From contig JAUZTB010000068.1 of NCBI GenBank assembly GCA_034780895.1, positions 24,162,697 to 24,226,696 on the forward strand: a DNA stretch of 64,000 bases, given 5' to 3'. This DNA comes from Rhynchobatus australiae (Eukaryota). Under the pieces are notes generated by a model. That model saw only the letters and a list, made by a program, of their open reading frames with translations, did not search any database and had not been told where the DNA came from. Shown here in pieces: positions 22,458-62,880 of the stretch. Within the stretch, counting starts at the first letter, position 1, and each line of letters begins with the position of its first letter. Made by a program: the position numbers and the translations under genes.

Positions 22458-22640
22458 AAAATGGCGCCTGGTAGGTGCTTAGGCGGGCGCAGGCTCTTTA
22501 TATACTCCTCCGGAATCCCGCCTCCCCCGGCGTCCGATTGGTTGGTTTCTGGCATCGCCCGCCCAGGTCTTGAGGAACGATTGGTTGTGGCCGATGTCGA
22601 TCAGCAGCACTGCACTGATAGTGGAGGTCAAACGACCAAT
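22458..22640 (-). promoter_or_regulatory. SFPQ core promoter: TATATAAA (22504-22497), YY1-type GCGCCATTTT (22467-22458), GC box (22517-22526), CCAAT boxes (22537-41, 22580-84, 22636-40)
   Basis: Motifs read directly from the sequence; the TATA box lies ~30 nt upstream of the GCCATTTT element, implying a TSS near 22470. Confidence 0.75.
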
Positions 22641-29884: not shown

Positions 29885-31279
29885 GACATAGATATAAGGT
29901 ACAATAATAAACAGTGATTTTGAAAAACATTTCTAGTCTTAGATAGGATGGTTACAAAGTTGCAACAAAGTTAATCTCTTCTTTGGTTTTGATGTTGAAA
30001 TGCATGGTGCAAAGGCAACTTAAAAGGAGGCAGGAAATTCGATCTAAAGAGCTATGTAGAAATAAACCGACCAATTTGTGTGATTAATCGCCTAATATAC
30101 GTGTACCTCAACATCTGTTACTGTTTAAGTAAGCCCAACAATAAAGGCAGTAGTGGGTCACACTGACTGTGAAACTGAGAAGACTTTCAGTCTGATTATT
30201 CTATTCCTGGCTAAAGGAGGAGGTGGGAAGCAGCAGTAAGGACTGGGCTGAAGCAAAAATAGGTAGAAAATACAAAAGACAAGCTTAAATAAATCATGTA
30301 CAAAGATAGATCTAGTCATATTAATTCCTTTTGCTCTCATTTAGTAATTGTTTAATTGATACTGTATTTTGTATAAACGACTGGAATTTTATTTTTTATT
30401 ATGAATGAACACAGCAAATAAATAATCAAAGGCCTCTCATTATCAGTTTGCAAAAGGATCATGTTCTTGCATCCTGAAATGCATAATGAGAGTCCCTGCT
30501 TTTTCAGCACTTGCAGTAACCCAGTTTACAGCACCCCTATTGCATTGTGGGATTCCTTGGGTGATTAGTTCTATGTCAGCTTGGATGCCTGGCTTCACTG
30601 TGTGTGGGTTCAAACAACAGGGTAAGCGTCAAACCATGTGTACTACAGTCTTTCAGGATCAGATGTTAAAACTAAATGCACTGCAATGCTTCATATGTGC
30701 TTTTTTTTTCACTGTTAGCAGCTGAAATGATATTAATTTTTTAAACATTTTAATCTTAATGGAGTGAGAAAGAGGCCTCCCTTGACATATTTATGTCAAG
30801 GACTGCATGTACAGAGATTTAATAGGTTGTATTAAAAGAAAAAATCTGCAGGAAAGGTGTGTTAGAAGGTTAAAGAAAAAATAACTGGTAAGCAATTTTC
30901 AAACACTGTAGTGCTGATCCTTGACTGTATTCTGGTCTCATACTGTTCAGAGATGGACAGTAGGCCTCCTAAAAGGGGCATGGCATGTGTGTATTATAAG
31001 AAATGGATGATTAATTGAAAGCTCCAGGGAAGAAAAGGAACAGAAAAGAAACCTACAAATGGTTGCTACAAATTGCCCCAACATTTAAATGTTACAAAGC
31101 AAATATCCGCAAACACACTGCTATATATCAGTTACCTCTGATTACTAGGTTTTATTCTTTATACTTTCTGTCAGATGTATCCAGGCAGAGGCATTTTGAC
31201 AGGATTCACTGATGTATTTATTTTGTGGTGTAAGGTTTTGCTGTGTCGCCTTTTGTGATTAAATGGAATGATCTAATTT

Positions 31280-39034: not shown

Positions 39035-39340
39035 AGTTGTACAGCACAGAAGCAGGACCTTCCACCCCCACTCCCTCTCACATCCCCATTTACCCTGATC
39101 CCATTTTATTCTCCCCACATTCCTATCAACTCACCCCGCATCCCAGATTTTACCACTCACCAACACACAATGGGCAATCCACAGAAACTCCATTAACCAA
39201 TGAAAATCCACATCTTTGAAATATGGGAAGAAACTGGAGCCCCCTAGGGAAAACCCATGTAGTCACAGAAGAGAATGTGATAACTCCAGACAGACAGCCC
39301 TGGAGACACCCAAAGTCACACCACTCGGGAGGAGCATGTC
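39035..39340 (-). mobile_element. HE1-like V-SINE
   Basis: tgggaagaaactggagcccc..ggaaaacccatgtagtcacag..gagaatgtg..aactcca is the reverse V-domain. Confidence 0.7.
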
Positions 39341-40395: not shown

Positions 40396-40983
40396 ATTAT
40401 CAGCTTCTCTCTCTGATCAGAAGTAATGCTGCAGAATTGCATCCTTAGTGACAGACTGGAACATGCTCACTGCATATCAGGAGGAAAATGGTCATGAAGA
40501 ATTTANNNNNNNNNNNNNNNNNNNNNNNNNNNNNNNNNNNNNNNNNNNNNNNNNNNNNNNNNNNNNNNNNNNNNNNNNNNNNNNNNNNNNNNNNNNNNNN
40601 NNNNNNNNNNNNNNNNNNNNNNNNNNNNNNNNNNNNNNNNNNNNNNNNNNNNNNNNNNNNNNNNNNNNNNNNNNNNNNNNNNNNNNNNNNNNNNNNNNNN
40701 NNNNNNNNNNNNNNNNNNNNNNNNNNNNNNNNNNNNNNNNNNNNNNNNNNNNNNNNNNNNNNNNNNNNNNNNNNNNNNNNNNNNNNNNNNNNNNNNNNNN
40801 NNNNNNNNNNNNNNNNNNNNNNNNNNNNNNNNNNNNNNNNNNNNNNNNNNNNNNNNNNNNNNNNNNNNNNNNNNNNNNNNNNNNNNNNNNNNNNNNNNNN
40901 NNNNNNNNNNNNNNNNNNNNNNNNNNNNNNNNNNNNNNNNNNNNNNNNNNNNNNNNNNNNNNNNNNNNNNNNNNNNNNNNNNA

Positions 40984-41597
40984 AAGCCAAACTTCGAGAG
41001 CTCTGTAAACAATATGGGCTCCCGAGTTCAGGAACAAGAGTGTACTTCCAAAGGGTTCTCTGTCAAAGACTTGGAATTGATCCAAAATCTGTCATTGTTC
41101 AAAAACCCACTTCGCGTTCAAACAGCCACGGAGACTGTTGCAGTGTCGCTGGATGTCGAAGCCGTCGAGGCAAGGACACTCACATTCGATGGTTCACCGT
41201 CATCAGAAAGAAAGGAAGTCATACTGCAGCCATAACCAAAGCTATCCAGCTTACCAGAAAGGGCTGGACACCAACAATGTATTCTCGGATTTGTGGACAA
41301 CATTTCAGTTGTGGCCAGCTGTCTTTTGAGCCAAGTTCTCCTGACTACATTCCACATTTACACATGGACCCTGCAGCTAAAGTAGTAACATCACATCCCA
41401 CCTTCTGGTCCAAAGAGAGTTCTGAGGAAGCCATGGACTTGACCAATAAGGGTACCATTAAATCTATTCATGTTGCAGGGCCGTCTCATCTTGATTTTAC
41501 CAACCGATATCACAGAATTAATTCTTCAGCAAGGGCATTGCTTCAATCAACTCCCGAGCATCCTTGTATATCTGTAGCACAGGATACAGGAACCAAG
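40984..41597 (+). CDS. Partial exon encoding a SAP-like motif + THAP-type zinc finger (5' part lost in a gap)
   Basis: Stop-free frame of >200 codons: KLRELCKQYGLPSSGT (SAP-like); CCSVAGC...WTPTMYSRICGQHF...PSSPDYIPHL (THAP C2CH); donor AAG|GTATTG at 41597/8. Confidence 0.65.
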
Positions 41598-43040
41598 GTA
41601 TTGTCAGGTTGTTTTAATTTGTAGATGTTATTAATGCTGTTGTCAGTGGTAATAAGCCTACAGCACAAAATTGTATGAAATTTGAACCTAAATTGGACAG
41701 CTAAAAGGAATTCAATTGGAGAGTTATTATCATAGAAAGTGTTGTTCTGCAAGTGGGAATTAGATACATTGGAATAATGTTAACGTTGCCCTGTTGCCTC
41801 AACGATAGGCTGGGGAGTGAGGTAGTAGGAAGTCCGCTTGCTTATTTCAAAAATCTGGAGCTTGACAGTCTTCAACAGCATTTCCACTCCATCGGTTTAT
41901 GGAGATGGAGGTGGGTATCTGAGGGTGACCACCCAGACCTTAGGAGATGGGTCTATCACCAATAGATTGAGATTGTATTGTTCTATTTTAAGATTATTAT
42001 ATTTAATATCTGCAAGTGGGTTTCCAGAGCCTTGGGAAATTTGGCAGCTGAAGGGATGTGAGATGGGAATCCCAGAGGCAAGTGTCTTTCCGGCAATGCA
42101 TGTGGACGGGAATGGGAAGAAATGATTCAATCCATGTTGTGTGTGGACCAGTTTCACCACACAAGAATAAGCAAACCTTTCACCTTTCTAGTTTGGATTG
42201 ATTGTGCTCCCCCATGAATGAATTGGCTCCCCTGTGAATTGACATCTCCCCTGTCTGCCACAACCTCCCCATCACTGATATCTGACTGAAACTATCCCAT
42301 TCCCACGAAGGCAGCAAAACTCTCTGTAACCACAGCAACTCTTTCCCGATCACACTCTCCAAATGGACTGAACACCATCCAATGCTTTAATTGAGCCAAA
42401 CTCTTCTGCTATTGGACCAATGCTTCCAGCGATAGGATTGATCACCTACCCCATCTCACACTGCTCACTTTCAGACCAACTCTGCCAGCTCACCATCAGA
42501 TATCCTGAAAAAGACACCCCACCTGTGAATGCCATGACAGCCCTCTTTCAATCAGTATTTTATCTTATCTTCCTGCATTCAGACTGGTACCACTCCACAA
42601 TTAGATTGAGCACCTCCCTTACAATCAGATTGATTCCACCCTACCTCCTTTCCCTTTGCAATTAGATTGCCATTCCTCCCACTCATGATTGGATAGACCT
42701 CCTCCTTGAGTCAACTGTGTAATGTGCAACTGAATTTGCATATAAAACCTCAAACTCATTATGTTTTCATTCTTTTTCCCTTCCAGTGTTCAAAATACAC
42801 TAACTACTTCCACTTTAAATTATCTTCTTTCACTCTTTCCAAACTTTCTGACATACGACACATCACCTTGTTTTCTCCATATTTCAAGGAAGTCCCTCAC
42901 TTGCCAACCTTTGATTGGAGTTGGATCATTGAGTAATAAATTAACTTGTATTTACATAGCATTTTTAACTCCAGAAAAGAATCATTCCTTCAATGCAGAA
43001 GAAAGCAATGATGGTGTCTTTTTGTAGGCGAATTTAAAGT

Positions 43041-43254
43041 TTTCTAAAGCTTTACTGGGAACCCACAGCCATTGTGCAAGGATTTGTGCTTAAGATGACT
43101 ATTTGTGACATTTTACCCACTTGTGCACATTAAACTGTTCCATCATTTGCACAGCATATGTTATGATTGCAGTAGAAGTTCTCTGCAGTCCAATGACATT
43201 TCTAAGCACAAGTCCTTGCACAATGGCTGTGGATCCTCAGTGAAGCTTTGGAAA
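43041..43254. repeat. ~55-bp imperfect inverted repeat with a ~100-bp spacer (MITE-like or fold-back)
   Basis: tttctaaagctttactgggaacccacagccattgtgcaaggatttgtgctta versus the reverse complement of taagcacaagtccttgcacaatggctgtggatcctcagtgaagctttggaaa. Confidence 0.85.
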
Positions 43255-46119
43255 TCTCTTTTAGTGTGAAAATTGCTGTCCATCTGCTTCCAGCTTTTGA
43301 CATTTTCTACCTGAATAGTCAGAATCAAAACTTCCTCCTAATCACTAGGAAAAGCCTTGGGTTTTACCAATTGGAAAATCAACATTAGCTGTTGCCTGAG
43401 TCTTTTAAAAGCTAATGAAGTAGACTCCTGATAACCCAACATCCTCATCTGGAGGTGTATCTGTCCTTTCCTCTGTGTTTAGCCATTAATTGTGTTGGAG
43501 CTTGCCCCCATGGGAGCAATGTTGGAATTCCCTCACTACCAGTACTGGACCAAGTCAGGAAGATGACTCCTCACCATCCNNNNNNNNNNNNNNNNNNNNN
43601 NNNNNNNNNNNNNNNNNNNNNNNNNNNNNNNNNNNNNNNNNNNNNNNNNNNNNNNNNNNNNNNNNNNNNNNNNNNNNNNNNNNNNNNNNNNNNNNNNNNN
43701 NNNNNNNNNNNNNNNNNNNNNNNNNNNNNNNNNNNNNNNNNNNNNNNNNNNNNNNNNNNNNNNNNNNNNNNNNNNNNNNNNNNNNNNNNNNNNNNNNNNN
43801 NNNNNNNNNNNNNNNNNNNNNNNNNNNNNNNNNNNNNNNNNNNNNNNNNNNNNNNNNNNNNNNNNNNNNNNNNNNNNNNNNNNNNNNNNNNNNNNNNNNN
43901 NNNNNNNNNNNNNNNNNNNNNNNNNNNNNNNNNNNNNNNNNNNNNNNNNNNNNNNNNNNNNNNNNNNNNNNNNNNNNNNNNNNNNNNNNNNNNNNNNNNN
44001 NNNNNNNNNNNNNNNNNNNNNNNNNNNNNNNNNNNNNNNNNNNNNNNNNNNNNNNNNNNNNNNNNNNNNNNNNNNNNNNNNNNNNNNNNNNNNNNNNNNN
44101 NNNNNNNNNNNNNNNNNNNNNNNNNNNNNNNNNNNNNNNNNNNNNNNNNNNNNNNNNNNNNNNNNNNNNNNNNNNNNNNNNNNNNNNNNNNNNNNNNNNN
44201 NNNNNNNNNNNNNNNNNNNNNNNNNNNNNNNNNNNNNNNNNNNNNNNNNNNNNNNNNNNNNNNNNNNNNNNNNNNNNNNNNNNNNNNNNNNNNNNNNNNN
44301 NNNNNNNNNNNNNNNNNNNNNNNNNNNNNNNNNNNNNNNNNNNNNNNNNNNNNNNNNNNNNNNNNNNNNNNNNNNNNNNNNNNNNNNNNNNNNNNNNNNN
44401 NNNNNNNNNNNNNNNNNNNNNNNNNNNNNNNNNNNNNNNNNNNNNNNNNNGGGAAATATGATCCCTGACAGTGTCTGGGAAATACCAGGGGAAAGCAAAT
44501 AAAATGTGGGCTGGTCAAGAGCTATGCTGGTAGTACTGTAGTTACGGTCACCTGAGTTGCTCTCAAGTTCAGGAGTGACATCCTGTAGAAGTGAAGTGGG
44601 GAAAAATTCCATGGACATTGAGACTATAAGTAAACAAAATGGTTTACACCTCCAAGATGGCTGACTGCAGACTGTATATGAATAGTCATCTATTGTCTGC
44701 AGTCAGCCAGTTTCTACAAAACAATTAATCATTTTTCCAATTACACAGAATACATCAATGTAACAAAATCTTTAGTGTGCACATGATACAAACAAATTAA
44801 CTTATTACCAGAATAAGGAAATAGCTGAATGCAAATTGGAGGATGTTTAGAACCCAGAATCTAGTTTGAAGATTATTTTGGAATTCCCTTTAGGAGTAGT
44901 GTAATATTTTATTTGGAATCATTGTGGCAGGAAATATGCTGAAGATTGCAGCTTACAAGATTTTTTCCCTCTTGAGACTGTATGCAGCTGTATTTTGGAA
45001 CTTCATTCCTGTACTCCAAGTTTATTTGACAAGACAAAGTTTACAGTTTAATTAATGCATTTTTTTTCCAAAGCCCATCTTGCTTCTGTCCATTTTGACT
45101 CTTACTTCACCTACAACTTAAATTTTCTGAAAATTTTGTTAGATTTATAAAAGCACTTTTCATTTGAAGTGAATTTTGTCCCCAAGTCATAGTGGGACAT
45201 CAGTGCATGGGAAATGGAATATTTTCCATTGCAGGAAAGCAGGACATGAATTGAGCATTCTAGTCTCGCCTGGTTACTTCTGAGGGGTGGGGTNNNNNNN
45301 NNNNNNNNNNNNNNNNNNNNNNNNNNNNNNNNNNNNNNNNNNNNNNNNNNNNNNNNNNNNNNNNNNNNNNNNNNNNNNNNNNNNNNNNNNNNNCCTGGTT
45401 ACTGCTGAGGGGTGGGGTGGGCGGGGTTCGTTTCTCTCCACTCTATAGGTACTTCAGTTGCAACCTCAAATGAACTAATCAGTGGGCACGTACCAGTGAG
45501 TATTTTCCATTGCACTCAGGCTGACTGTTGTCCATCTGGTGATGGTAATCCTATGGAGGAGATTTTCAGGACTTTGAACTGTGGGATGTGACTGGATCAG
45601 ATTGGTGTGGGAGGTGGTGATAGGCTATTCGTTTATTACCATTATCCTTCCGAGTGCATGTTGCAACTTGAAGAGGTTGGTGAGAGGAAGAGGTTGGCGA
45701 AAGGCTGTTCTGCACCCTGCAAATGGTGCACACTGTAGCCATGGTGCACTGATGGTGAAGGGAATAGGGGTTTAGGTTGCTGGTGAAATGGTGTACTCTA
45801 TCTTGATATGTAGCAAAGTGAAATAGAGCCTTAGTATCATTAACTTATAACTTCATCTTGTGTCTAGATTTTACATTGGATTAATGCAAGACAGCTGGAG
45901 TTAATCCATTACAGACACAATTCCCCATAGCTGTAAGAGGAGCGGTCACAATTCAAGCCTCTGGTCTTTTGCAGATGGAATCCACATTACAGGATGCTGA
46001 AGTCATGCTGCTTATCTGGTCCGAAAGCTGTTTTCTGCTTATTCTTATTCATTAATTTGTCTTTGATTTCAGCAAACTTGTTTCCTAATATTGATTCTAT
46101 GTGCCACTGTCTAAGGCTG

Positions 46120-46900
46120 GAATGAGTGGCTCATAATCTCTGTTCTACAATTGAGCCATGGATAAGCTTAACTGACGATGCAGGCATTCCACTCAAACCT
46201 GCTTCCATTTAATGTAACCCCACTCAAGTCCTAGCTTGGCTTAAAATACTCATCCCTATTTTTATTACCTCTTAACTTGACCATTCCAGTACTCTATTGG
46301 CTGGCCTTGCATCTGGTAATTGGTTTATTAGTGTTACATGAGGTACAGTGAAAATCTTGATTGCATGTCATTCAGATAGATACTTCCAAGCACATCAACA
46401 TAGTACAAAAGGCAAACTATAACAGAATGCAGAATATAGTGTTACAGTTACAGAGAAAGTGGAGTGCAGGTAGACAAACAAGTTTAAAAGGGTCATGAGG
46501 TAGATTGCGAAAGAGTTCACCTTTATTTTATAAGAGGTCCATTTAAGAGTCTTACAACAGCAGGATGGAAGTTGTTCCACCCTACAGAAACCAGAGATCA
46601 TCTTGTTCACTTCTCAGCCCTATGAGACATTGACTCCTACTGCAGCAGTCCCTTAATTTAAAATTTTTCATTTTTTTTAAATCAATGCCACCATATCCTT
46701 TACGATCTCTACAACTTCCTCTAACCGTCCACCTCTCCAAGATCAACGTGCCCCTCCAAATCTGACCCTTTCCTGATTACATAGCCCCAATAATTATTAA
46801 AGATCCTAAGCTCCAGGATTTCCTCATTAAACCTCCCTCCCGTTTCCCATCCTTCCACCCAGATTTTGATCATCTGTCCCAAATGTTTCCATATGTGGCT
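46120..46900. mobile_element. Decayed L2-like fragment (+) interrupted by a Rex-type 3' tail (-, ~46315-46580)
   Basis: cttgaccattccagtactctattggctggcc; the insert ggtaattggtttattagtg...ggtacagtgaaaa resembles the inverted repeat tail at ~21490-21572. Confidence 0.45.
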
Positions 46901-49699
46901 TGATACCAAGTTTAATTTGAAGATATCCCTCAATGTCTTGCAGTGTATTTCAACTTTGATACAAGTGATTACTATTAGTTAGGTGAAGGTGATTGCATTT
47001 TATAGCAGTCATTATAAACATTCAAGCATGCCCTTTTCTCAGATATGGTTTAATTTTATTTTGTCCTGTTGATATCCATTTTCTTCACTGATATTGTCTC
47101 CTCTTCAAATTCTTTGTCCCCTTTTCTTGAAAATAATCCCTTCTTTCCTNNNNNNNNNNNNNNNNNNNNNNNNNNNNNNNNNNNNNNNNNNNNNNNNNNN
47201 NNNNNNNNNNNNNNNNNNNNNNNNNNNNNNNNNNNNNNNNNNNNNNNNNNNNNNNNNNNNNNNNNNNNNNNNNNNNNNNNNNNNNNNNNNNNNNNNNNNN
47301 NNNNNNNNNNNNNNNNNNNNNNNNNNNNNNNNNNNNNNNNNNNNNNNNNNNNNNNNNNNNNNNNNNNNNNNNNNNNNNNNNNNNNNNNNNNNNNNNNNNN
47401 NNNNNNNNNNNNNNNNNNNNNNNNNNNNNNNNNNNNNNNNNNNNNNNNNNNNNNNNNNNNNNNNNNNNNNNNNNNNNNNNNNNNNNNNNNNNNNNNNNNN
47501 NNNNNNNNNNNNNNNNNNNNNNNNNNNNNNNNNNAAATCTATAGGATCATTTTTTTTGTAGAGCTCCTTGATTGTTCTCTGTAAGCTTCTCACCTACAGG
47601 CACAGTGGTTGGCAAGCCCAAGGTCAATCACATGGGAAGCCTGCTTCATAATACCAAAGACCATGAGATGTGAACACTTGGATGTACTGGGGAGCGGGAA
47701 TAGAGGGAGGGACTCCAGATTGTAAATTGTGGGGAACGGATTATGGATGGGTTAGGGGCGATTTGGGAACTGTGGTAGATATCCAAACCGAGTCAGTGAG
47801 TGTATCATGGGATGTTTGCGATCTGAGTGATTAGTAGACTGGGCATTGGCGGTTAAAAAATTCCAATAGCAGAGGAACATTCCTGTTTTGTTCAGGGTGT
47901 AATAGGACAGGAAGTGCTCAGTTGGTGATTGGAGAGCATTGGATTGTTATGGCTGTCCAATAGTGGCCAGGCATGCAGAATGACTGTCAGTGTCCCTGCT
48001 GATGGTTTAGAAAAGCAGCTGGGGTTCAGTGGGTGGGGGGGAAACATCATTGATGGTCAAAGTTGGAGCAGACAGATCATTAGGTGATGGATGGATTTAC
48101 TCTGTACATTGTTGGACTTTGAGTAAATGGATTCTTTTCTAGGCATACAGACCTTGCAACTAGCACCTCTTTAGTCCCCCTGAACTAATACCTGCAGAGT
48201 TTCCCCAAGCCTTTGAAACTCTCTGCTTGTGATTAAATATAGAATGACAGTTAAAATGAAGACAAGTAGCCTTATTATACTATTAAAATGACCAGTTAAC
48301 CTCCTGAAAGCAGTTTAGTCAATCACACCTATTTCATCTTACAAGGCTCAAGGGGGGTATAGTTCTGTTTACAGGTTTTGTACACTTTAGTCTCTGATTA
48401 TGGCTTTGGGATTAAGACCACCAATCCTCTTTGGTGGGCAACCTGTGGCTTTGCAATCTCAAATGCATAGGTGGTTCAGTGAACTAAAGTTAAAACTCCT
48501 GCACCAATGACTGGATCTGGGTTAGAAGGGAGACCCCTGTCACTGCCCCAGTGTCCTTGCAACTCTGCTGCCTCTCATTTTACCCATCAAAAAAATCCCA
48601 GATTTGGCATTGCAGAACTTGCACATTGTTAAAATATTGCACTTGATATATACAAAAAATATTGGATATTGGGTACAGCTTCAACTTAATCATTGACATT
48701 CATGAGCCACTGCTCTTCCAGGTAATTGGTTTGTACATCAGAACCCATTAAATTTAAACTTTTACAAAAAAAAATTGGCTTGTGTAATTGTCATCCTAAA
48801 ACATCAGAATACCTGGAATTCAATGAAAAAAATGCAATAAAACTTAGTCACTGTTAAAGTAGTGGCCTTTGTTATTGGCCTTAATTGAGATTTTTTTCCA
48901 GCTATTAATTTTTTTTGAATTTTCAGCTCTATTGAAGCTGTTCATCTGCTTTTCTCAGGTTTGAGTGGTGTGTGTGAATCATTAATTTTAAAAGATTAAG
49001 TGGATGGTTGAGGTTGCATCTTTGCCTGCAAGCAGTAAAAAAAAAAATTCCCTTGCATGTCATACTTTCCTTAGAATTGATCTGCTCAGCATGTCTAACT
49101 TCTTCTGACCTAGTGTTAAATCCTCTAAATACACATTAGTGACAGAAAATTGCATTGCAAATTGCAATATTTCTGTTCACTGAGTGATAGAATTTCATTG
49201 GAAAACAAAATGATGAATGACTGCATTAAGCTCAAAATTCCCTCAATGACCCAGACTCTCAAGCTGTCTTCACCTCTTTCTTGGGATAGAATAAATTGGG
49301 CACAAACCTGATTCTTCCAAGCATCAGTAGCTGAGTAAACAGTTGTGTTGGGATGAGATGGAGGCCACACAGAGCAGGACAAGCTGTTTAAAGAGGAATA
49401 GGAGAGGACAATTAACAGGACACCACATCAGTAAACAGCCTTTGGGGAACAGATCCTTAGAGATACTAACCTCCTGAGTATGTGTCTGGTGGTTTTCTGC
49501 CTTCGAGGATTTCCGTCTCCTCTCTCCAGCCTTTCACTGCAATATCAGAATTGTTTGCCCATGTTGCATCATTCTTCATAGCCTCTCAGGTCAGAGTTAC
49601 TCAGAGAATGTTATGTACCACTTGCTCCAAAAACTCTTTATACACATTGCAAGTTAACTTTCAGCAGTGGTAAACAGCAGAGGAATTCTGGGTGAATGC

Positions 49700-51340
49700 A
49701 GAAACTGTAGTTAATTAATTGTAATGTATTCCATGTGCCTGTTTTCAGAGCTAACTAATTTAACTCATACAACTCTTCATGAAACCAGGTATTCTGGGTA
49801 CCTTGTAACAACTTCTGCAATTTATCCTGCCAACATCAACAATTTATGTCCAGATGCCCCTGGATTTGTGTGTTCTGGCAGCCTCTAAAGTTTTACTACT
49901 TAGTTTACATTGCCACCCATTAATTTCCCAACAATGATTTAACAATTCTTTCAGTTAAATTTCATTCTCCATGTGTCTGCTCAATTCACCAGTCCACATC
50001 CTCCCAAGCTGTATGATACTCTGTGGTTTTCTTGACTCCTGAGTTTTGTATCAGCTGCCAAATTTGAAATTATGTCCTGATTACCCAAATCTGGCTGATT
50101 ATTATGAAACTAAGAGCACAGATCCCAGCGGCAACCCCTGGGAGACAACTCTACACAGAATAAAAATAAGAGCCCACTACCACTCACTGGATTTAGTCCC
50201 TTGTTCAACATTGACTTATGAAGCCAATATCCCACTTAATCCCATGAGTTTAAATTTTACCATTGCATTATACAGCATCCAGCTAATGCTCTAATACTTG
50301 AGCAAACTCATCCCCCTTTCCTTCACATAGAAATTCCCATTGAATAGTAGACTGGGGATGAGAAAAATTCCTATATACCATTCCCAAAAAGTGCTTAAGA
50401 AAGCAAATAGTTCCCCCCCNNNNNNNNNNGGAGGGAGAAGGGGGAAGCAGGAAAAAAAAACAAAATTCTCCACTAGTGGCTCAGTAAAGAAAAAAGGTTG
50501 TTTGGAACATCTAATCAACCAGTCACACATTTGATTTGAATCTGCCAATTTACCTTAATGAGAATGTACAAATAACTTAAGAATTGTAGAGCTGAGCCAA
50601 GAGAAATAAATTACAAGAAATTCTGGTCCTAATGGCTATCTGATCACTTCCATCCCAGGAGATCCAAAGGATAGAAACTTATTTTTGCTCACTGAAGATA
50701 AATACATGATATAGCAGCAGCCACGCATTATATTTTTCTATTGAAATTTGGTCCTGTTGAAGTCAATGGAATCGAATTAACGAAGTAGAATGGAACATTC
50801 ACCCACTACTNNNNNNNNNNNNNNNNNNNNNNNNNNNNNNNNNNNNNNNNNNNNNNNNNNNNNNNNNNNNNNNNNNNNNNNNNNNNNNNNNNNNNNNACT
50901 TTTGTAAAGGTGTCAAGGCCTCAGAGAAACCAGACAGCAATAAGGTAGTAGCACTGTTTGGAGAGTTTGGGATGCTGGTGTTCTGTTCAGAGCAACAATA
51001 GTTAAGAGGACATTAGAAGAAGGTGTTCCAAGTACTTCTGGCAGAATAAGTGAGGAAATGCTTTCATGTATTGAGAGTCATTAACTAGTTAGCATTAATT
51101 TTTGGGATTGAATAAGGGAATCAGAGGGAAAAAAGTGAACACTGCATGTTATTAGGATTAGGAATCCACTCTCCCAAGACTGGGAAAAGCAGATTCAGTA
51201 ATAACTTCCAAAAGTGAATTGGAAAAATTTACATAGATAAAGGGAATGAACAGGGAAGTGGCACTAATTGCTTTGCTTCTTGAAAGTGTTCATGCAGGCA
51301 TAATGTGGTAAAAGGCCCCTTCTATGCTGCATTATTCTTT
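49700..51340. mobile_element. Decayed CR1 fragments (minus ~49.7-50.3 kb; plus ~50.9-51.3 kb)
   Basis: ttttgtatcagctgccaaattt (reverse FADD motif); gttaagaggagacattagaagaaggtgttc. Confidence 0.5.
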
Positions 51341-52449
51341 GTTTCTACAACAGGGAGATTGACAGCTGTCTTACATTGCAGTAAAGGTGTTCTCTGCCTG
51401 CCCACCACAATTCACACAGATGCATGTCTGCACAGATTTCAATATATCCTGGCTTGGCAGCTTACTAATGCAGGTGGAGGTCTAGAAGGAACCCAAGACT
51501 GAAAGCTTGATGCCACAACTAAGATGTGTGAATACCTGGCCTACTGCAATGTTGGATGCTATCTGGGAAACTGCCTAATCAATTTTTAGCCACCTACACT
51601 TGAAGACAGCAATGTTGCAAGCTTCTATCGACATGAGGTATGTCAGAATCCCACACAAGCAGCCTTCCAAATAATGGATGTCACAAGCAATTTGGGAGTT
51701 ACAAATGAGCACAAACCTGCCCACATTGAATGCAACACATTGAATACTTATTCAGGAGTCAAAATTTTCTGTTAACTTTCCCCCCAGTTTCATGCTCTTT
51801 CTACTGTCAGTTGTGGTTCATTTGGTAATGCTCTTTGTCTCCCAGTCCAAAGCATCAAATGCATAAAATCTAAGCTTAAATTCCAGTGCAATATTGAGGA
51901 ACCAGAGACTACTGGGTGCGATCTAGCCTACAGGAAATTTCTACATCAGGTGCATGTGGGATGATGCAATTCCCATGCAATGCTTCTTTTAGAGCATGGC
52001 AGGGGAGATTGGACCAAGTTGTTCTGTGGTACAAGTTACAGAGCACTCCTCAAGGACAACCTGGTCCTTATACCACAGAACTTAGAGACCTGCAAAGTGA
52101 GCAAGTTATCTATCTACATTCTGAGACCTCCTTGGTACACTTCATCAGCTCTATTCCCACGCAACCTGCTCCATCCCAGATCTCAAATCCCAAACCGAAC
52201 TGTTAATCTATGCCCCCCGCCAGCTCTTAAAAATAGCTACTTGCTGCTTGTCCTCATCTTTGCCCACAACCATTTGTCAGTCTTCCATACCTTGATGCCC
52301 CAACAGTGTGCAAGCCTTTCGTTTCCCCACCCCACCCCCCAAAATCCAAAGGTAAAGTGCTTAATCTTCTGAATCCCCAGCAGTCTGCAGGCCTTCAATG
52401 CCCTCAATCCCCCAAAAATCTGCATTTTTTTCTGCTTCCAATTCTTACT

Positions 52450-54000
52450 TCAAATTCTGGGCTTTGAAGTCTACTTATGACACATTCTCAAACTTGAGAT
52501 GGTACAAGATCTTTTGCCTTCCATTGCCTGATTTACACAGTACTCACAGGTAAATTATCCAGGTGATCCATCATCAACACTTGGCCCTTTATTCCTTCAT
52601 CAGCAGTTATCTCAGGCACAGGAAGGAAGCTGAGTGTGTTGCAGTTTCCATGCTATTTCATTGTTTTGAAATCAATAGTACTTGTGTTCATTTGCTCTGA
52701 AGGTCAAAGCCCAGCTTCAAACTCTTGTGGAAACTATTTGAAGGCATTGGTTTCATTTCATTGAGCAGGGAACTCATCTGGTCTGTGTAAATGGTGGCAA
52801 GATGTCCATAAATCAACTTATGGAAGATGACAGTTAAACTTTTACCCAGCTTTCTGTTTGCTGCTGTCAGCATTCTGAACATAAACCCTGTCAGCTTTGC
52901 TGACCCATCTTCTATTCAATGGAACGACATAGCACCAACACTGAATGGTGGTGTGTCCCAGGATAAGGTTTACTTTCCATCTGGTGTGTAGTGGTCTAGC
53001 ACATCTGCAGGGTGTAGCAATTTTTTGCAATGCACAAAATTTTATTCTTGAGCTTCAGTCCACCTCCTTTTGAAGAAGTTGATGCAATGGAGCAAAGAGC
53101 ACTGCTACCTTGGCAGTAATTTGCTATAATGGTTCAACAATCCCAGATATACCTTCTGCTCAGTTACATTAGATGGAATAGGATCATTGATAATTACTTT
53201 TACTCCTTGAACTGGATGGAGTCTTTTAGCATCCATAGTGTCCCAAGCAATTTACTTTATTCACCAAGACTTCTTTAAATAGAGGCCTGCCTTTCCTAGT
53301 CTGCTCAATATTTCTTCCAGGTTCTTTTCCTCGAGGCCTCCAAAGCCAGGATATTATCCAAATGTGCAGTGACTCTGAGAACACCCTGCAGTAACCCCTC
53401 AAAGGGTACTCTGACAGGTAGCTGCTGCTAATGAAACACTGAAGGGTTATTGTTTATGTGAACAAGCCCTTGCATGAGTTGACAGTCAAAAACCTATGAG
53501 ACTAATCCTCTAATGAAATTTGTTAATATCACACAACCCATATCCAAAAGTAAACTGCTGTCCTTCCCATACAACTGCAAAGAAATCTTCTATTCTGGGA
53601 ACAGAATAGTGTTTTAGGGATGAGACTTGAATAACAGTCTATTTTTCATCTCCATAAATCCTGATGAATCAATCGTGCTCTAACTCTGGCACAATGGGTG
53701 ATACCCAGAGAACTTAATGGAAGTTCAACTATTTTCTGTCTGAGAACCCTGCCCATTACTGCCTCCAACTTTGGTTTTATTGCACAAGGCACAGGTTTGG
53801 AGACCCATAATGAAGTGTTGCAATCAAGATGAATTTGGCTTGGGTGTCCTTCAATGTGCCCACCTTATCAATTCACCTTTGAAAATATCTTCATGTCTCC
53901 CTCATACCTCGCAAAATGTTCCAGCTGTCATAACAAAATGAATGCTCCTCTAATCCAGAATTTCTTTCAGTTAGCTCCCTCCCAACAGGTCCAGAGCCTG
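52450..54000 (-). mobile_element. Decayed Gypsy/Ty3 LTR-retrotransposon pol (RT-RNase H)
   Basis: Minus-strand reading with frameshifts: EGLLQGVLRVTAHLDNIL (YxDD), NLEEILSRLGKAG, PSNVTEQKVYLGLLNHYSK, FAPLHQLLQK, EDGSAKLTGFMFRMLTAA, FHKLIYGHLATIYTD, HGNCNTLSFLP. Confidence 0.8.
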
Positions 54001-54819
54001 CAACAAGTACCAGTGCTGAGGTTTTAACCTGCCTTTACTGTTTCACTGTCATGCCAGCAACACTAATCACTTCAATGTGTTCACTTCTGTAGGTGTTCAG
54101 GTTTAGCAGCCCCTTTTTAAATTTAAGAGATAGTGTAGTACTTATGCATAATACACCTGGTTCACCCATATAACACCTCACCCAGTGTCAAACTCAAATG
54201 CCACACTCTCCCGAAACTAGTTGTTTAAATGTTTACCAATCTCTAGATCGAATATATTCAAATGACTACACATTCACAATTCCCTGAGGTAAAGAATTCC
54301 AAAGATTCCAAGATAGTGGATCCTTCTCATGACCTCTTGGCAATATTGTTGTTAAATATCACTATATACTTTTAGAACAGACATGTTATTGTTCCACAGT
54401 GAAGCCTACTTTTCTTCATTTCGCAGTACTTACCACTAAAACCACCAACATTTAAATTGGACCAAGATTTTAAATTCATTGTGCTTGCTGTTTTCAGCAG
54501 GGAAAAGTTGCTCAAAAAATGTCCTCTGGACTAGATTCAGGATGGTCTCGTGACTCCAGCTCTCAGAGTACCTTTTCTTCTCATGGTCCTGGACTACAAC
54601 TCACAGCTGGTGGACTAGTCCCTCCATTCCCACTGCTAGACTAACTACTCCATTCCTGCTGCCACACCGGTCTCTTCACTCCTGTTTAGACTGACTTGCC
54701 TACTCCCTCTGCAGGACTGGCAACATTCCAAGTCTCATACAAGCCCTCTTGTCCCACGTGCTGATCTGCCCTCCACTTGCTGCCGCCAGACTCCCACTTC
54801 TCGCTGTGGTCCACTTATG

Positions 54820-56350
54820 AGCATACATACAAACTCGGGGCAGAAACAGACCACTCAGCCCCTTGAGCTAATTCCATCATTTAATAAAATCATGGTTAAT
54901 TCAACTGTTACCTCAACTTTATCCCTAGTAACCTGTCATCCTGTTGCTTATCAAAAATCTGTCCAACTCTGGCTTAAAAGTTTGAGGAAGAGAATTCCAA
55001 AGACTCACAATCTGAGAGAAACATCTTCACCACATCTCCATCTTAAATGGGCTACTCTTTTCTTTAAAAAAAATGGTGATCTATAGTTCAAGAGTCCAGT
55101 GGACTCAAGCCTAGCTTGTTCAACNNNNNNNNNNNNNNNNNNNNNNNNNNNNNNNNNNNNNNNNNNNNNNNNNNNNNNNNNNNNNNNNNNNNNNNNNNNN
55201 NNNNNNNNNNNNNNNNNNNNNNNNAAAGGGACACCAGCCTAGCTTGTTCAACCTTTCTGCAGAAGACAACCTGCTCATCAATGTATCAGCTGAGTTGACC
55301 TTCTCTGAACTCTTTGCAGCACATTTTACATCCTTCCTTAAAAGGAACCAATACTCTGCATGTGGTCTAACTAACTGTAGCATAAAGTCCGCACTTTTGT
55401 ATTCAACTCTTTTGGCAATAAAGATAATATTTTTCCAAATTACAATATCCATTTACTGGCATTTTGCAAAAACAGATGAACTCCTGCTTTTTGTTAGCCA
55501 TCTAATGTTCTGTCCATGTCAATATTTTAACCTCCTGTATGATAAGCTTTAGTTTTCAGTAAACTATATATATATTTTTTTTAAACAGCACCTTATCAAA
55601 TGCCTTCAGGAAATCAAAGTACAATGCATCTATTGGTTTTCTTTCATCCACAGCATGTTCATTTAAAAGTGAATTCCAACAAAATAGTCATGATTTCCCT
55701 TATACAAAACCACTTGGACTTTACCTGATTACCTTGGATTTTAAGAAATCTGCTATAACGTCATTCATAATAGATTCTAGCATTTACCTCATGATAGATG
55801 TTAAGCTAACTGGCCTGTACTTTCCTGATTTCTGTCTCCCTCCCTTTCAGAATAATAGTTAATTTTGCTTTATCCCCCCATTGTAGTTGAACATTCCCTG
55901 AATGTAGAGAATTTTGGAAAATTAAACCGACACACGAGCTATCACACTTTTCTTCAGACCCATCAGGACTCGAGACTGGTCAGGCAGCTCCAACAATTTG
56001 CTCAGTCCTGCTGAATCTTTGTGATTTCCCAGAGTTCCTTGCTTCCTTCTCATTTACAGCTATTTTGGGGATGTTTAGTTGTATCCTTCGTGGGAAATAC
56101 CCATTTAATTTATCTACCATCTCCCTATTTTCCATTGTTAATTTATCAAACTCACTTTCCATGGGACCATCTCTCACTTTGTTATTTCTTTGTAATTTTA
56201 AACACCTGTGGAAGCTCTTACTATTGTTTTTTAAAATCTTTCTGGATAGCTTCATCTTGGACTTTTCCTTCTGGCATGAATCTATACTATGTATTCTAAA
56301 CTATCTTCTTAAATATCTGCCACTGCTTGTCAATTGACTGATTTATTAAC
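54820..56350 (-). mobile_element. Decayed CR1 LINE (ORF2 fragments)
   Basis: KNNSKSFHR..., ENREMVDKLNGYF, KRVEYKS..MLQL.VRPHAEY motifs. Confidence 0.75.
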
Positions 56351-59300
56351 CTAATTTGAGTTCACTTTTGCTAGCTGTGTGTTTGGATAGGAAGATATGC
56401 CATTAAATGATGATCCTCTAGATACGACATGATAGATCAGAACAGAACCAGGTGAATGGAATGCCACCCAGTTGAACAACAATGGGCAGCACTGATCAGA
56501 TTTGTGAATGGTCCATGAACACTACTTTGTTATTCTTTTTTTGCTCTATTTAGTTATTTTTGTAATTTAACATAGTGTCTTTGCACTTTTCTACTGTTAT
56601 AAAACAACAAATTTCATGCCAAACAAGTCAGTGCTAATACATCAGATTCTGATTGAAGAAGAATGGTGTGGTCAACTCTGCCAAGATAGGTTGAGAATGA
56701 TAAGGAATTTCCTCCATCACATTCCTAATAATAATAGTCATTAATAACCTTGAGATCAATGGTAGGGATAAAAATCTGATTGGAAGAATTCAAACGAAGA
56801 AATTGAAGAAAGATTGGCAAAGGATTTGAAAGGCTATAACAGTTTCAAGAGTTTTAGAAGGACAATGGAAGTTGGAGATGGCATAGTAATTTACAAAGGT
56901 TTAGTAGCAAGGGGAAACAATTTTTTTGTTGAAGGGGTAACAATGGTGGATTTGAAAGAGTGGGTGGGATGGTGAATGGAGAAAGTGAGCCGTTGACAGG
57001 ATTAGTTAACTCCAGGGCTAGGAAGGGAATTTGAATGTCAATAGCTCTGCAGGGTTAGGATTGAGGGAGCTGGAAATCATTATAATGGACTAGATGAACT
57101 TCAAGGGATAGACAATAGGGAAAGATGCAAGTTCAATGGTAGAGCTCAAGTGAACCTGAGAAGTTTGGTGGATGGCTTTGGGTAAAGGAAGGAAATGGCC
57201 TTGCTCTTACTGATGGAAAAAATCCATGACCTCCTTACAATTATAGCTGGAGGTGAAAGTGGAAGAAAAGGGGAGGAAGGGTTTAGGAAGATAATTTGGA
57301 GGAGAAAAAAAAAAGTGGCCAAGTGATGTTTTCAATGGTCAAGGACATCAAAATGGTTGAGCAGATCAGTTGTAGAAAATTTGTTGTGAATGAAGGACAA
57401 AAAAATGCTAAGTTCTTTTTTAAAAATAAACAATGAATATTGTGCAATCTACCCTTTTCTTAAGGTTACACTTCACTGGATCACACAAGAAACAAAAAGG
57501 TTTGCCTCTAGCATCATATGCAAATATTATACATTCAATACAAATCAAACTGACAGGCAATATACAATTTTAAAGTAAATGAAGGGAAAAAACATGTGTT
57601 CTCAGTTGAAGGTGGCAAGATTTGTTGATATGACTATTAAGAAAACAGCTGGGATCCTTGGCTTTCTAAATAGAAATACAGAGCACTAAAGCAAGATATT
57701 ATGCTGGATCCTTATGAGCCAATGGTTAGATTCGAAGTAGTAACAGTTCTTTTGTTTAATTTTCTCAGAACGAAGAAACACTATTCGAGTGAGTTAGTGA
57801 TGTTTTGGTACTGTTCAGCATCCCCGGTTCCCAGTCCACTTGGAGAAGGGGAGATGTTACTGGTTTCTCAGAGTAGCTGTGCCTCATGCTGCAATCTTGG
57901 AATATGTGATGCTGGTATAATATTTATCATCTTGCAGACCAGGAAGAGAATGACAGATGTGTGCACAAGCTTTTCACTTGGATGAGAACAGACTGAACAA
58001 GAATTAACAGTTATGTGCAAGTGTTACATCTGCATGCAAGTAGAATGTTCCAGTCCGGAGGTTTAAATTCCAACTAAGGAAAGAATAACTTAAATCCAAA
58101 CTAATCTGAGAATTGGTCTCCCCTGCTGAGCATCAATACCATTTTCAGAACTGGGAAATTCAATGTCTATATCATGATAGTAAATGGACACCAGTAAACG
58201 TGCCTCAAAGTGAAAAAGATAACAAGAAACAAAAACTTCCAGTCTCAAGTTTATCCAGGGAGAAAGAAGAAATGAAGGTACAAGTTTGAACCTCAAAATT
58301 GCACAACAAAACCAGTTTTCACTTTTTAAACAAAGAGCATTTTAATGTTTAATGGGGAGAAAAGCAAATGGTAGGGGGAATTGAAAATACAAGTGGTTCT
58401 TAAGTTACCACAGATTGATCAGGACACAACTTTTATCTCTGAGAGAGAACATTTAACAAAACTAATAGATTTGCCTAGCACAGAGGTAGTCTGTAGCATA
58501 TATTAACTGCAAAAATTAGCTATGCTTAACTTAGTCTGCCTCCCTTATAGGTCAATATTAAAATAATTCTTCTGGGAAAACAGCTTAATTAGGCAAATTG
58601 TGGTAGATGCTTGTGAACATAGAGTTAATTGCATCTGCTAATAAATTTCTGCTTTCAGGTTGAAAGAGTCCATCNNNNNNNNNNCAAATAGTGAATGGGT
58701 GATTACAAAAAAAATGTTTCTGTACAGCATTTGAAGGTAATGGATCCACACTGGATGCAAGACATAACCACACCAACACATGCACAGGTTTACTGTTTGA
58801 CCAATGGAGTTAAGCCATGCTCTAAGAAGCAGGATTATCATTGTTCCACATTGTTTGATTTTCATATCCCTCAATGAAATTTAATGTATCGTCAGTCTAA
58901 TGTTCTCAGTAGTTGATGTTAGAGGTGTCTATTCCTTGAAATAAAGATAGATGTTAACTTTTGGGTGAATGAACAGTTGAGTGAACCAGCAGACCATCCA
59001 TATATTTATATTCTACCCCATAATGTTTTGCAGCAGGGTCATTTGACATTTCCACTGAAATCAAATATGGGGAAATAAAAATCAGGAAAATGTAAAGTGG
59101 TTGTTGAATTATAATCACTGATTTAATATTATTGCACGAACTCTAGAGCTAGATGCAATAGGAATCATTTGATCATTTCACCTGAAGAAATTCAATGTTA
59201 ATTTCACCTGAAGAAACATTCAGTTCACTGCTCAAATGCAAAAGAAGAATTGCTTTTACCAAATGTATGGAGTTGGGAGTTTGAGACAATTGCACATTCT

Positions 59301-59759
59301 GAAATCACCATTGAATGAGACAAATGAATTATTTTTGTTCAGCAGTTACTCCATTTAACACCGCACAAGCTTCAATTTAAAAGTGTAGTTCACCAATCTA
59401 CAGCTTTTGAAAATTCAAGCCAAGAAAATAATCTGTGTTGACTTTATTATGACAAGGAGTATCATTCTGAGCAAAATCTGTTACCATTGTATTTCCTACT
59501 TTTGAATGGATAAGCATTCTTTCTGCCAATTTTTAGGAATTGTCATTAAGTTGTTTGAGAAGCAAAATCTTTCCCATCTTTGTTCATGGATCCCAGCATA
59601 AATCATTAACATCAGGAGTCCTCTCTGCACATTTTCTGTTTCTGCTCCTTTCTTTATTCACTTTCTTTGAAATACTAAGCACATTTAAAATGATTGAAAC
59701 ATTTTTGATGCCTTCTTTGTTTTGTTCCAGCTGACACAGTTTTGCAACATGTGTTTCAC

Positions 59760-62700
59760 TAACATGGACAGTACAGCACAGGAACAGGCCCTTTGGCCCA
59801 CAATGTCTGTGCCAAACATGATGCCAAATTAAAGTAGATCTCTTCTGCCTGCACATGATCCATATCCCTCCATATTCATGTATCTAAATGCATCTTAAAT
59901 GTCACTATCACATCTGCTTCCCCATGATCCCTTTGTACAACTTTGCCATTAAGGCTGGTTAGCCTGACGTCAGTGGTTAGTTACATTTTAGAGTTCATTG
60001 TTGAAGATAAAGTTCTGGAGTACTTTGAAGTACATGATAAAATTGAGCAAAGTCAGCATGGCTTTGTTAAGTTAGACAAAGGAGAGTTGGTGCATGTTAT
60101 TTACTTGGAGTTTCAGAATGCCTTTGACAAGGTGCTGCACATGAGGCTGCTAAACGAGGCAAGAGCCCATGGTGTTAGGGGCAAGGTACTAGCATGGATG
60201 GAAGATTAGAACAAGGATATACTGCTAAGGATTTATGAGGAGTTGGTTAGATGCAATTGGAATATTGTGAGCAATTTTGGGCCCTGTATTGAATGAAAAA
60301 TGTGCTGGCCCTGGAGAGGGTCTAAAGGAGGTTCACAAGAATGATCCCAGGAATAAAAGACTTAACCTGTGAGACACGTTTGATGGACCTGTACTCGATG
60401 GAGTTTAGGAGGATGAGGGGAGATCTCATTGAAACCTATTGGGTACTGAAAGGCATGGATTGGATGGATGCTTCCATTGGTTGGAGAGTCTAAGATCCAA
60501 GGGCACAGCTTCAGAGTCAGGGGACATCTCTTTAAAACTGAGATGAGGAGGAATTTCTTCGGCCAGAGGGTGGTGTATTTGTGGACTTCATTGCCATAGA
60601 GGGCTGTGGAGGCCTAATCATTGGGTATATTTAAGGCAGAGATTGATAGGATATTGATTGATTAGGGGGAGAATGGGGTTGAAAAAGAAAATCAGCTATG
60701 ATTGAATGGCAGAGTAGTGTTTATGGACCAAATGGCCCAATTCTGCTCCTCTATCTTCTGGTCCATTAACTATATACTTTCCCTTGATGTTTGACCTCCC
60801 AAATTGAAACACTTCACTTTTGCCCACATTAAGCTTCATCTGCCATTTCTCTGCCCATAACTAATTGATTTATATCCTGTTGTATCCTTTGACGACCTTC
60901 TTCACTGTTCATAACTTCACCAATCCTTGTGTCTTCTGCAAACTTACCAACCCACTCATCTACATTTTCTTTCAAGTCACTTATACAGTATATAACAACA
61001 GCAGAACACCACTGGTCACGGATCTCCAGCAAGAATACACATCTTTCACCAATACTCCCCACCTTCTATGGCCAAGGCAATTCTGAATCCAGACTACCAA
61101 ATTACCATGGATTCTACGCATCTTCATCTTCCAGATCAGCCTACCACGAGAGACATTGTCAAAAGCTTTATTGAAGTCCATGTAGACAACATCTACTACC
61201 CTAGTCAATCATCTCCTTGAAAAAAACTCATGTTGGTAAGACACGACCTGCCCTGTATAAAGCTTTGTTAACAGTCTCTAAGCAGGAGATGCTCTTCTAA
61301 ATGCACATCAATCCTATCCCCAAAAATCCTCTCCGATAGCTTCCTAACCACTCACATGAAGTTAACCAGCCTATAGTTTCCTGGATTATCCCCATTTCCC
61401 TTCTTGAACAAAAGGAAATGCATTGGCTATTCCAAGTCCTCTGGGACCTTGCCTGTTGCTGGTGATGATACAAAGATATTCATCAAGGATCTAGCAATCT
61501 CTTCTCTTGCCTCATTCAGTAACCTGGAATATATCCCATCAGGACCTGGGACTCATCTACCTGAATGTTCTTCAAAAGACTCAGCACCACCATCTTCTTG
61601 ATTTCAAAATGCCCTAGCACATTAGCATGCTCCACACTGCACTCACTATCTCCCATGTCTTTCTCCTTGGTGAATACCATCACACAGTACTCATTTACTA
61701 CCTCACCCACATTCTCTTACTCCAAACATTAATTCCCTCCTTTATCCTTCAATTGTCCAACCCTCTCCAGAGTTATCCTCTTGTTCTAATGTAAATATAA
61801 AATGCCTTGGGATTCCCTTTAATCCTATTTGCTAAAGAAANNNNNNNNNNNNNNNNNNNNNNNNNNNNNNNNNNNNNNNNNNNNNNNNNNNNNNNNNNNN
61901 NNNNNNNNNNNNNNNNNNNNNNNNNNNNNNNNNNNNNNNNNNNNNNNNNNNNNNNNNNNNNNNNNNNNNNNNNNNNNNNNNNNNNNNNNNNNNNNNNNNN
62001 NNNNNNNNNNNNNNNNNNNNNNNNNNNNNNNNNNNNNNNNNNNNNNNNNNNNGATCAGCTTGTCTTAACACATCTCCTGTCAAATGTGGACTTGCCCGAT
62101 AACAGCTGCTCCCAATAAACTCCCCCCAGCTTCTGTCTAATAATGTCATAACTTGCCCTCCCCCAATTTAGTATTTTCCCACAAGGTCCAGATTTACCCT
62201 AAGTCATAATTGTCTTAAAAATTAGGCATTTGTGATCACTTTTCCCAAAATGCTGTCCCACTGGCCAGTCACCTGGCCAGGCTAATTTCCTAAAAGAAGG
62301 CCCAGTATGGTCTTTCCCTTAGTTGGACTATCCATGTATTGTTTCAAGAAATGCTCTTGGATGCACTGGAGAAATTCTGCCCCATCAATGAACAAAGGAA
62401 GTCCCTGTCAATATTGGGGAAGTTATTGTCACCCACTATGACAACCCTGTTGCTCTTAGATCTTTCCATAATCTGTCCACATATCTGTTCCTTTATCTCT
62501 CAATGCTGTTGGGAGGCCTGTTATATAATCCCATCAGAATGATTGCACCTTTCTTATTTTTGAGCCCTTCCCATATTGCCTCAGTGGACGATCCCTCTAG
62601 AATGTCCCCTCTGAGTGCAGCGGTGATATTCTCTCTGCAATTCCCACATCTCTTTTATCTCCCTCACTATCATGTCTAAAACTTTGAAATCCAGGAACAA

Positions 62701-62880
62701 TGAGCTGCCAGTCCTGTTCCTCTCGCAACCATATCTCCGTAATGGCTGGAACATCATAGTTCCATGTACTGATCCGGGCTTTAAGTTTATCTGTCTTACC
62801 CATAATACTCCTTGCATTGAAATAAACACACTTCGGCACATCAGTCCCATTGTGCTCATTAACCTGTCCCTGCACTATAT
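59760..62880 (-). mobile_element. Long CR1 LINE ORF2 relic (endonuclease through RT to 3' tail)
   Basis: YFNARSIMGKTDKL..AITEIWL..WQLIVPGFQSFRHD (APE); VDVVYMDFNKAFDNV; VGKFAEDTRIG; tail at ~59770. Confidence 0.88.
59945..60767 (+). mobile_element. CR1 fragment nested in opposite orientation inside the minus-strand CR1
   Basis: RLVSLTSVV..QSQHGF..VIYLEFQNAFDKVLHMRLL; 3' tail ggaccaaatggcccaattctgctcct. Confidence 0.8.

Follow-up and report, generated by a model that had tools for sequence, protein, structure and literature searches.

A probable alternative first coding exon of ZMYM4 encoding a SAP-like domain and a THAP zinc finger in the cartilaginous fish Rhynchobatus australiae

In host-transposase fusion genes, such as the KRAB-transposase genes, splicing joins the DNA-binding domain of a transposase to regulatory domains of the host, frequently in an alternative isoform, and in fusions of the KRAB-transposase type the host domain is usually N-terminal. 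The host gene KCTD1 acquired its isoform b when a transposon piece inserted upstream supplied a new N-terminus, the short isoform being kept; the piece encoded a Crypton recombinase domain and was gained before cartilaginous fishes branched off (PMC3212892). The DUF3504 domain of ZMYM4, a member of the ZMYM2/3/4-WOC family, is also Crypton-derived, and in the same synteny blocks of placental mammals the gene duplicates ZMYM1 and ZMYM6 carry ZMYM4-like N-terminal parts fused to C-terminal hAT transposase parts (PMC3212892). THAP domains have been added to conserved transcription regulators in restricted lineages, as in CTBP-1 of C. elegans and E2F6 of zebrafish, the THAP group of which conserves the Trp residue (bioRxiv 2021.02.01.429122). 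In the ISL2EU transposases of the PHIS superfamily, a THAP domain with an SPDYxP tail is joined to HTH_Tnp_4 and DDE_Tnp_4 domains (PMC4482050, PMC9179366). The available text of PMC10027918 mentions neither ZMYM nor sharks.

The locus analyzed here lies in a 64,000-nucleotide stretch of a Rhynchobatus australiae contig (JAUZTB010000068.1), hereafter the window. We consider it best explained, with a probability of about 0.8, as an alternative start exon of ZMYM4 which encodes a SAP-like domain, a captured THAP and a candidate CtBP-binding motif and is predicted to yield a DNA-targeted repressor. The gene is the same ZMYM4, as MYM fingers, TRASH, QRICH1 and DUF3504 follow the exon; unlike ZMYM4 of bony vertebrates, its long isoform opens with one or two SAP-THAP units, which were not found there. 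The arrangement resembles KCTD1, except that the recipient gene was Crypton-derived beforehand and likely took its THAP from an unrelated group of transposons. It differs from ZMYM1 and ZMYM6 in that ZMYM4 itself carries the addition, as an alternative exon at the N-terminus; from KRAB-transposase fusions in that the captured domain leads; and from the CTBP-1 and E2F6 fusions in the loss of the Trp and the presence of a SAP-like domain ahead of the THAP. The HTH and DDE domains, terminal repeats and additional copies known from ISL2EU transposases were not found. Comparable events are known and the isoform is present among the RefSeq models, so the surprise is limited; no published description of a THAP exon in ZMYM4 was found in the openly accessible literature, and supplementary gene lists of shark genomes could bear on this point. 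What the locus offers is a clear, datable gain of a likely transposon-derived module by a conserved regulator through an alternative start exon, and ZMYM4 would be doubly transposon-derived if the proposed origin of the THAP is true.

Structure of the locus and its junction with ZMYM4

An open frame of more than 200 codons directly after a gap had been predicted, and 213 codons without a stop were counted on the plus strand from 40983 (corrected from 40984) to the TAG at 41622-41624, whereas about 0.009 frames of such length are expected per window from base composition. The proposed donor is present at 41597/41598, past which the frame continues for 8 codons to the stop. The start codon and the acceptor of the exon fall within the N stretch upstream, about 20 codons 5' as judged from orthologues. 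No long frame was found near the THAP exon. The neighbouring repeats had been described as riddled with stops; in a partial check of this description, the repeat copies at 39086-39298 and 46314-46575 matched other copies at 71-81%.

Table 1. Features of the locus; positions refer to the window unless marked as extended window coordinates or given on a separate segment (L023).
Feature	Position	Strand	Basis or remark
SFPQ first coding exon, 3' end approximate, in CpG island	21783..22370	-	RRM matches, CpG island
Probable 5' exon farther upstream in this transcript, donor G/GTAAGC	30573..30621	+	16/16 residues equal to N-terminus of whale-shark model P0160; single copy
Readable part of alternative first coding exon of ZMYM4 (probable), 205 codons	40983..41597	+	Pristis RefSeq model P0156, residues 21-225, at 98.5%
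SAP-like helix-loop-helix, N-terminal helix under N stretch	40983..41081	+	Pfam SAP, Atlas clusters, structural match
Atypical THAP zinc finger, SPDYIP tail	41139..41363	+	Pfam, fold model, alignment to 147 related THAPs
AMDLTNK short motif, candidate CtBP-binding site	41430..41450	+	Identical in 15/15 exon-bearing species, inside variable tail
Phase-0 splice donor AAG/GTATTG joined to ZMYM4 exon 2	41595..41603	+	Run X1 contig; RefSeq junctions
First part of 32,141-base intron to ZMYM4 exon 2, running past window end	41598..64000	+	X1 contig, RefSeq junctions
Usual ZMYM4 first coding exon, phase-0 end, own CpG island	L023:927-989 (extended 64927-64989)		Inside the 32,141-base intron, beyond window
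ZMYM4 shared exon 2	L023:9739-9805 (start at extended 73739)		Beyond window end

There is little doubt in our view that ZMYM4 uses this frame as an alternative first coding exon (Table 1). A 5420-base contig of run X1 covers positions 41491-41598, and the 30 letters that follow match ZMYM4 exon 2 plus one extra codon, so that the junction foreseen at 41597 is joined in frame to exon 2, as it is in the RefSeq models. Between the donor and exon 2 the genome contains a GT-AG intron of 32,141 bases, and since the joint skips this intron, the contig derives from spliced RNA despite the tool label 'RNA? (probably DNA)'; the RNA basis of the junction is this one contig, which comes from a related organism, with no raw-read joint listed. 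RefSeq-type models contain the exon in 15 of the 16 cartilaginous fishes retrieved, fused to ZMYM4 in ten and alone in five, while for Carcharodon no exon occurs among the models listed. The usual start is also modelled in 6 of the 10 species with a fused model. Both the THAP exon and the usual first exon end in phase 0 and use the same acceptor at exon 2, and thus represent alternative starts. The exons of the Pristis model P0156 are collinear with the contig from 40983 to approximately 145 kb (extended window coordinates), some stretches being unmatched, and the MYM fingers are encoded 54 kb downstream of the exon on the same strand. The original prediction of one exon of a lineage-specific host gene therefore stands as regards a host exon that is expressed and under purifying selection, but the gene is ZMYM4 and not a new stand-alone one.

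In this assembly, ZMYM4 exon 3 (L024:7300-7360, extended ~81336) is about 40 bases short of the P0156 prediction and contains a frame change, for which an assembly error is more likely than a real allele, the models of relatives being intact.

Upstream of the THAP exon, the match at 30573-30620 with its donor suggests a conserved exon and a transcript start nearer to the neighbouring RRM-bearing gene, which we take to be SFPQ, following the first reading of the sequence. The promoter may possibly be common with SFPQ, whose exon lies on the opposite strand, in line with the predicted divergent orientation. The surrounding stretch 30400-30750 is single-copy, and its 30573-30620 part is likely a conserved 5' exon or an upstream open frame. 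Upstream of SFPQ, the stretch 22530-22645 contains several CCAAT/ATTGG boxes, some in one orientation and some in the other, a pattern to be expected of a bidirectional promoter. Two inverted repeats within the intron, at 43038-43257 (55-base arms, 87% complementary, 110 apart) and 44658-44709 (24-base arms, 4 apart), are possibly small non-autonomous elements. No Rfam families were found in 22000-64000, and CatSper-epsilon is located on another contig (3 matches on C76).

The SAP-like and THAP domains

All the motifs quoted in the original prediction (SAP-like, THAP, SPDYIP and AMDLT) were found in the translation, and the Pfam comparison it had proposed matched both domains, each under the 23.9-bit cut-off for the single unit present here. 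For SAP, the single unit gave E=8e-4 and 19.4 bits, while 31.6-33.6 bits were reached in three orthologues with two SAP-THAP units and 22.2 in a fourth; for THAP, the corresponding values were E=4e-4 and 21.6 bits, with 33.4 and 39.4 bits in two two-unit orthologues. Two of the two-unit orthologues passed the cut-offs for both domains. Atlas assigned SAP clusters at 0.79, which is a lead only. The orthologue model was superimposed on 1h1j with rmsd 1.7 over 36 columns (E not significant), and the structural rows 1h1j, 1zbh and 8kd1, of which the latter two presumably hold SAP domains, showed rmsd 1.7-4.2 with E above 1; the two-unit model is of low confidence except for residues 11-60. These data are weakly consistent with a SAP-like fold, and the domain is retained under this name, as predicted. 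Ser15 (41025-41027) is private to this assembly, Ile or Val being present in all other aligned unit-1 orthologues, and is either a private allele or a sequencing error.

The THAP domain contains the C2CH zinc ligands C53, C58, C104 and H107 with a spacer within 35-50 residues, and keeps F108 and P124. Of the P, W, F and P named as invariant in THAPs (bioRxiv 2021.02.01.429122; further sources on THAP features are PMC13631171 and PMC2879526), the first Pro is replaced by Ile74 and the Trp by Ile84, so the substitutions noticed at the Trp and FP positions are real. Ile84 stands where Trp is found in 98% of the 147 related THAPs and Ile in none, and Ile74 where 75% have Pro; besides, Arg90 is changed to Leu (Arg in 90%) and Phe70 to Trp (Phe in 82%), all four positions being changed in both units. 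Trp at position 70 beside Ile at position 84 may represent a core swap with repacking. Of the AVPTIF box, the YIPHLH stretch keeps only the Pro, matching the DYxP variant of 108 of the 147 relatives. The THAP was modelled by AlphaFold with pLDDT 92-97 and resembled solved THAPs (Z 6.9, rmsd 2.7 over 77); five of ten aligned chains scored Z>=2, all of them THAPs (Z 5.0-7.1), in agreement with the beta-alpha-beta fold. As 70 of the 75 alignment rows behind the model are ordinary THAPs, it is no independent test of stability. In Foldseek, neither the THAP model nor the two-unit model had a match at E<=0.001.

These substitutions bear on whether the domain still binds DNA. With the gene structure as described, the THAP might have been repurposed for protein or RNA after the loss of Trp, Pro and Arg, which we regard as possible, at well under even odds; it would account for the replacement, in both units, of a Trp so widely conserved and listed among the invariant residues. 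Continued DNA binding is favoured by the preserved zinc ligands and last Pro, by the repacking that Trp70 may provide, and by the TPTMYSR stretch, which aligns with the DNA-contacting loop of THAP1 in a basic domain adjoining the SAP-like one. In either case, a THAP devoid of the invariant Trp is a probe of what the THAP fold needs.

The AMDLTNK motif lacks the initial Pro of the PxDLS consensus. The related ALDLS motif of RAI2 binds CtBP (PMC11187106), and AMDLTNK is a candidate CtBP-binding motif. ZMYM4 exon 3 (L024:7300-7330) encodes a conserved ALDFS, a second CtBP-like candidate that would stand in tandem with AMDLT in the fused isoform.

Origin and age of the exon

Judging by its grouping with the THAPs of DDE_Tnp_4 (ISL2EU-type) transposases, the THAP was probably captured from such a transposase before sharks and chimaeras split, which supports the predicted affinity to the ISL2EU/Harbinger-related kind. 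In the tree (80 rows, 92 columns, long stem 0.96), the units nest inside the group that holds these transposases, whereas 12 of this genome's 16 further THAPs fall outside it (96/93); the immediate sisters of the units are without a transposase domain, and identity to ISL2EU-type THAPs is only 30-40%. Among 87 scanned relatives (the 69 best and another 18, for the most part longer ones, of 147 non-chondrichthyan matches), DDE_Tnp_4 or HTH_Tnp_4 was present in 16, 14 of which have a DYxP-type tail; a P-element family was detected in none and a transposase domain was absent in 71. A profile of both units retrieved 13 proteins among 6973 candidates, namely nine chondrichthyan ones and four weakly matching THAP proteins, three of the latter with HTH_Tnp_4 and DDE_Tnp_4.

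No DDE remnant was detected with 16 transposase queries in the window plus 200 kb downstream (264 kb), where the THAP was the sole match, and the nearest DDE_Tnp_4 match listed for the contig lies at a distance of 8.4 Mb. On either side of the exon, no terminal inverted repeats of a convincing kind were seen. The claim that neither follows the frame is thus borne out, for DDE over 264 kb. Protein and DNA searches of the 2.2-Gb genome, which score best candidates only, each matched just the locus itself, i.e., one copy, and not the many near-identical copies with terminal repeats named beforehand as evidence against the prediction. Consequently, the THAP-HTH-DDE transposase, terminal repeats and multiple copies that define an ISL2EU transposon (PMC4482050, PMC9179366) were not found here. 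A further frame, for a YqaJ exonuclease, belongs to ISL2EU transposons, and no long frame of any kind lies near the exon.

The same absence of DDE remnants and terminal repeats is compatible with a less direct route from transposon to exon, in which a host THAP gene domesticated earlier donated the THAP through exon shuffling or retroposition. Multi-THAP proteins lacking any transposase domain are among the best non-chondrichthyan matches, the combination of SAP and THAP was seen in no relative outside cartilaginous fishes, and neither PMC4482050 nor PMC9179366 records ISL2EU from sharks or the elephant shark. We nevertheless consider this source rather unlikely, because the PDYxP tail occurs in none of the other THAP segments of this genome (segments from 20 of 21 loci), the units group with transposase THAPs, and the three best matches of the two-unit profile outside the clade are THAP-HTH_Tnp_4-DDE_Tnp_4 proteins. 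Some THAP genes are located on short unplaced contigs of the genome (G000), namely L002-L005, L014, L016 and L018-L020, and may represent contamination or elements that have not been placed. Two of these genes, L014 and L016, cluster with THAPs of the transposase type.

Orthologues were found in sharks, rays and a chimaera, as the proposed search for single-copy counterparts had anticipated. Only three proteins among 1.84 billion cluster representatives exceeded 400 bits (Callorhinchus, Pristiophorus and Narcine), the next scoring 140. Of 381 candidates in a search for longer proteins, 8 matched; five of these bear the name of ZMYM4 isoforms, and the closest, from Pristis pectinata, is 99% identical. 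With cluster members added, the total came to at least 16 chondrichthyan species, three of the clusters being listed in part (15 of 24, 19 and 17). The THAP core is identical at 73 of 78 positions to that of the chimaera Callorhinchus and at 76-78 of 78 to those of 13 aligned sharks and rays. It equals DUF3504 in conservation: in comparisons of Pristis with four other species, identity amounts to 97-100% for the THAP core, 94-98% for DUF3504 and 53-78% for the exon tail. Over 474 bases, the differences to X1 comprise 7 synonymous and 2 non-synonymous ones (pN/pS 0.08, p=7e-4), so the selection check proposed earlier indicates purifying selection. Single copy, orthology across species, purifying selection and expression, as expected of a domesticated exon, were all observed.

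Seven of 16 species, six sharks and the chimaera, have a second SAP-THAP unit, which is absent from all 6 rays. The ray unit 1 pairs in the tree with chimaera unit 1, and unit 2 of the chimaera with those of sharks (99/88, 99/84), which places the tandem duplication before the split of the chimaera from sharks and rays. HY(T/P)M opens both units (the unit-1 start is shown in two shark models, and shark unit 2 has the same opening), and this common start suggests that the duplication may have taken in the whole exon. In G000 no second unit was found, nor a remnant of it in the readable sequence between 41625 and exon 2 (best score -3.2 bits against -5.7 for the reversed control), N stretches, one of 871 bases, being unreadable. 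A weak match at 42440-42580 was rejected as a remnant, being at chance level.

The chimaera split dates back over 400 million years. The exon appears nearly unchanged since then, and among annotated proteins the gain is found only in cartilaginous fishes; the 'lineage-specific' of the original prediction is correct for this class, yet the exon is far older than one ray lineage, being common to sharks and chimaeras. At least as old as all living cartilaginous fishes, the exon could also be ancestral to jawed vertebrates and lost in bony ones. Four protein searches, which covered annotated proteins and in three cases depended on shared words, found no bony-vertebrate or lamprey counterpart, and we judge a loss improbable, as compared with a gain in cartilaginous fishes.

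Proposed role and expression of the long isoform

Alternative starts would produce a long ZMYM4 isoform with a SAP-THAP N-terminus and a short one from the usual exon. In the long isoform, SAP and THAP would bind DNA and direct the MYM fingers and DUF3504, together with corepressors, to new sites, and the AMDLTNK motif would bind CtBP. The combination of a SAP-like domain, a THAP and a candidate CtBP-binding motif on ZMYM4 is the ground on which the long isoform is predicted to be a DNA-targeted repressor, a function to which we give an even chance. In human cells, ZMYM4 is a SUMOylated partner of B-MYB (PMC7242444), and in frog embryos Zmym4 affects craniofacial cartilage (PMC10579616), which makes the cartilaginous-fish isoform a testable candidate for lineage-specific regulation. 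More speculatively, and at long odds, cartilaginous fishes might have made a repressor that recognizes transposons out of two transposons: the Trp-less, ISL2EU-like, tandem-duplicated THAP together with SAP would take the Crypton-derived ZMYM4 corepressor scaffold to the ends of ISL2EU-like elements or to their relics, which would be silenced and later drawn into a shark-specific gene network.

The exon might instead belong to a small stand-alone SAP-THAP gene upstream of ZMYM4 that only sometimes reads through into it. Models in 5 of the 15 exon-bearing species, chimaera included, are solely stand-alone, the 8 codons between donor and stop would permit a short product, and ZMYM4 has its own CpG-island start. 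The stand-alone models, however, disagree on the sequence after the donor, whereas the fused models agree on in-frame exon 2 junctions and the X1 contig shows one from the 41597 donor; a separate gene thus seems quite improbable to us. The C-terminal tail of the Narcine stand-alone model has no match in the window or the genome and is probably a gene-model artefact.

Raw RNA reads at the locus numbered 20, 0 and 10 in three runs, mostly on the exon and at low depth, and no RNA holder of the exon is on record among the indexed runs. In run X24, the first mate lies on the minus strand in 10 of 10 reads, which fits plus-strand RNA in a stranded library, and the reads of run X22 are mixed, on both strands. 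That the frame is a young transposon or a recent pseudogene open by chance, for which a possible frameshift allele in run X24 might speak, is refuted by the orthologues, conserved to chimaera, and by the single copy, the pN/pS of 0.08 and the splicing. The change concerned is a one-base loss at 41366, just after the THAP, seen in 6 of 7 X24 reads from 2 start places, in 0 of 4 in X22 and absent in X1, and is either a duplicate-amplified error or a frameshift allele.
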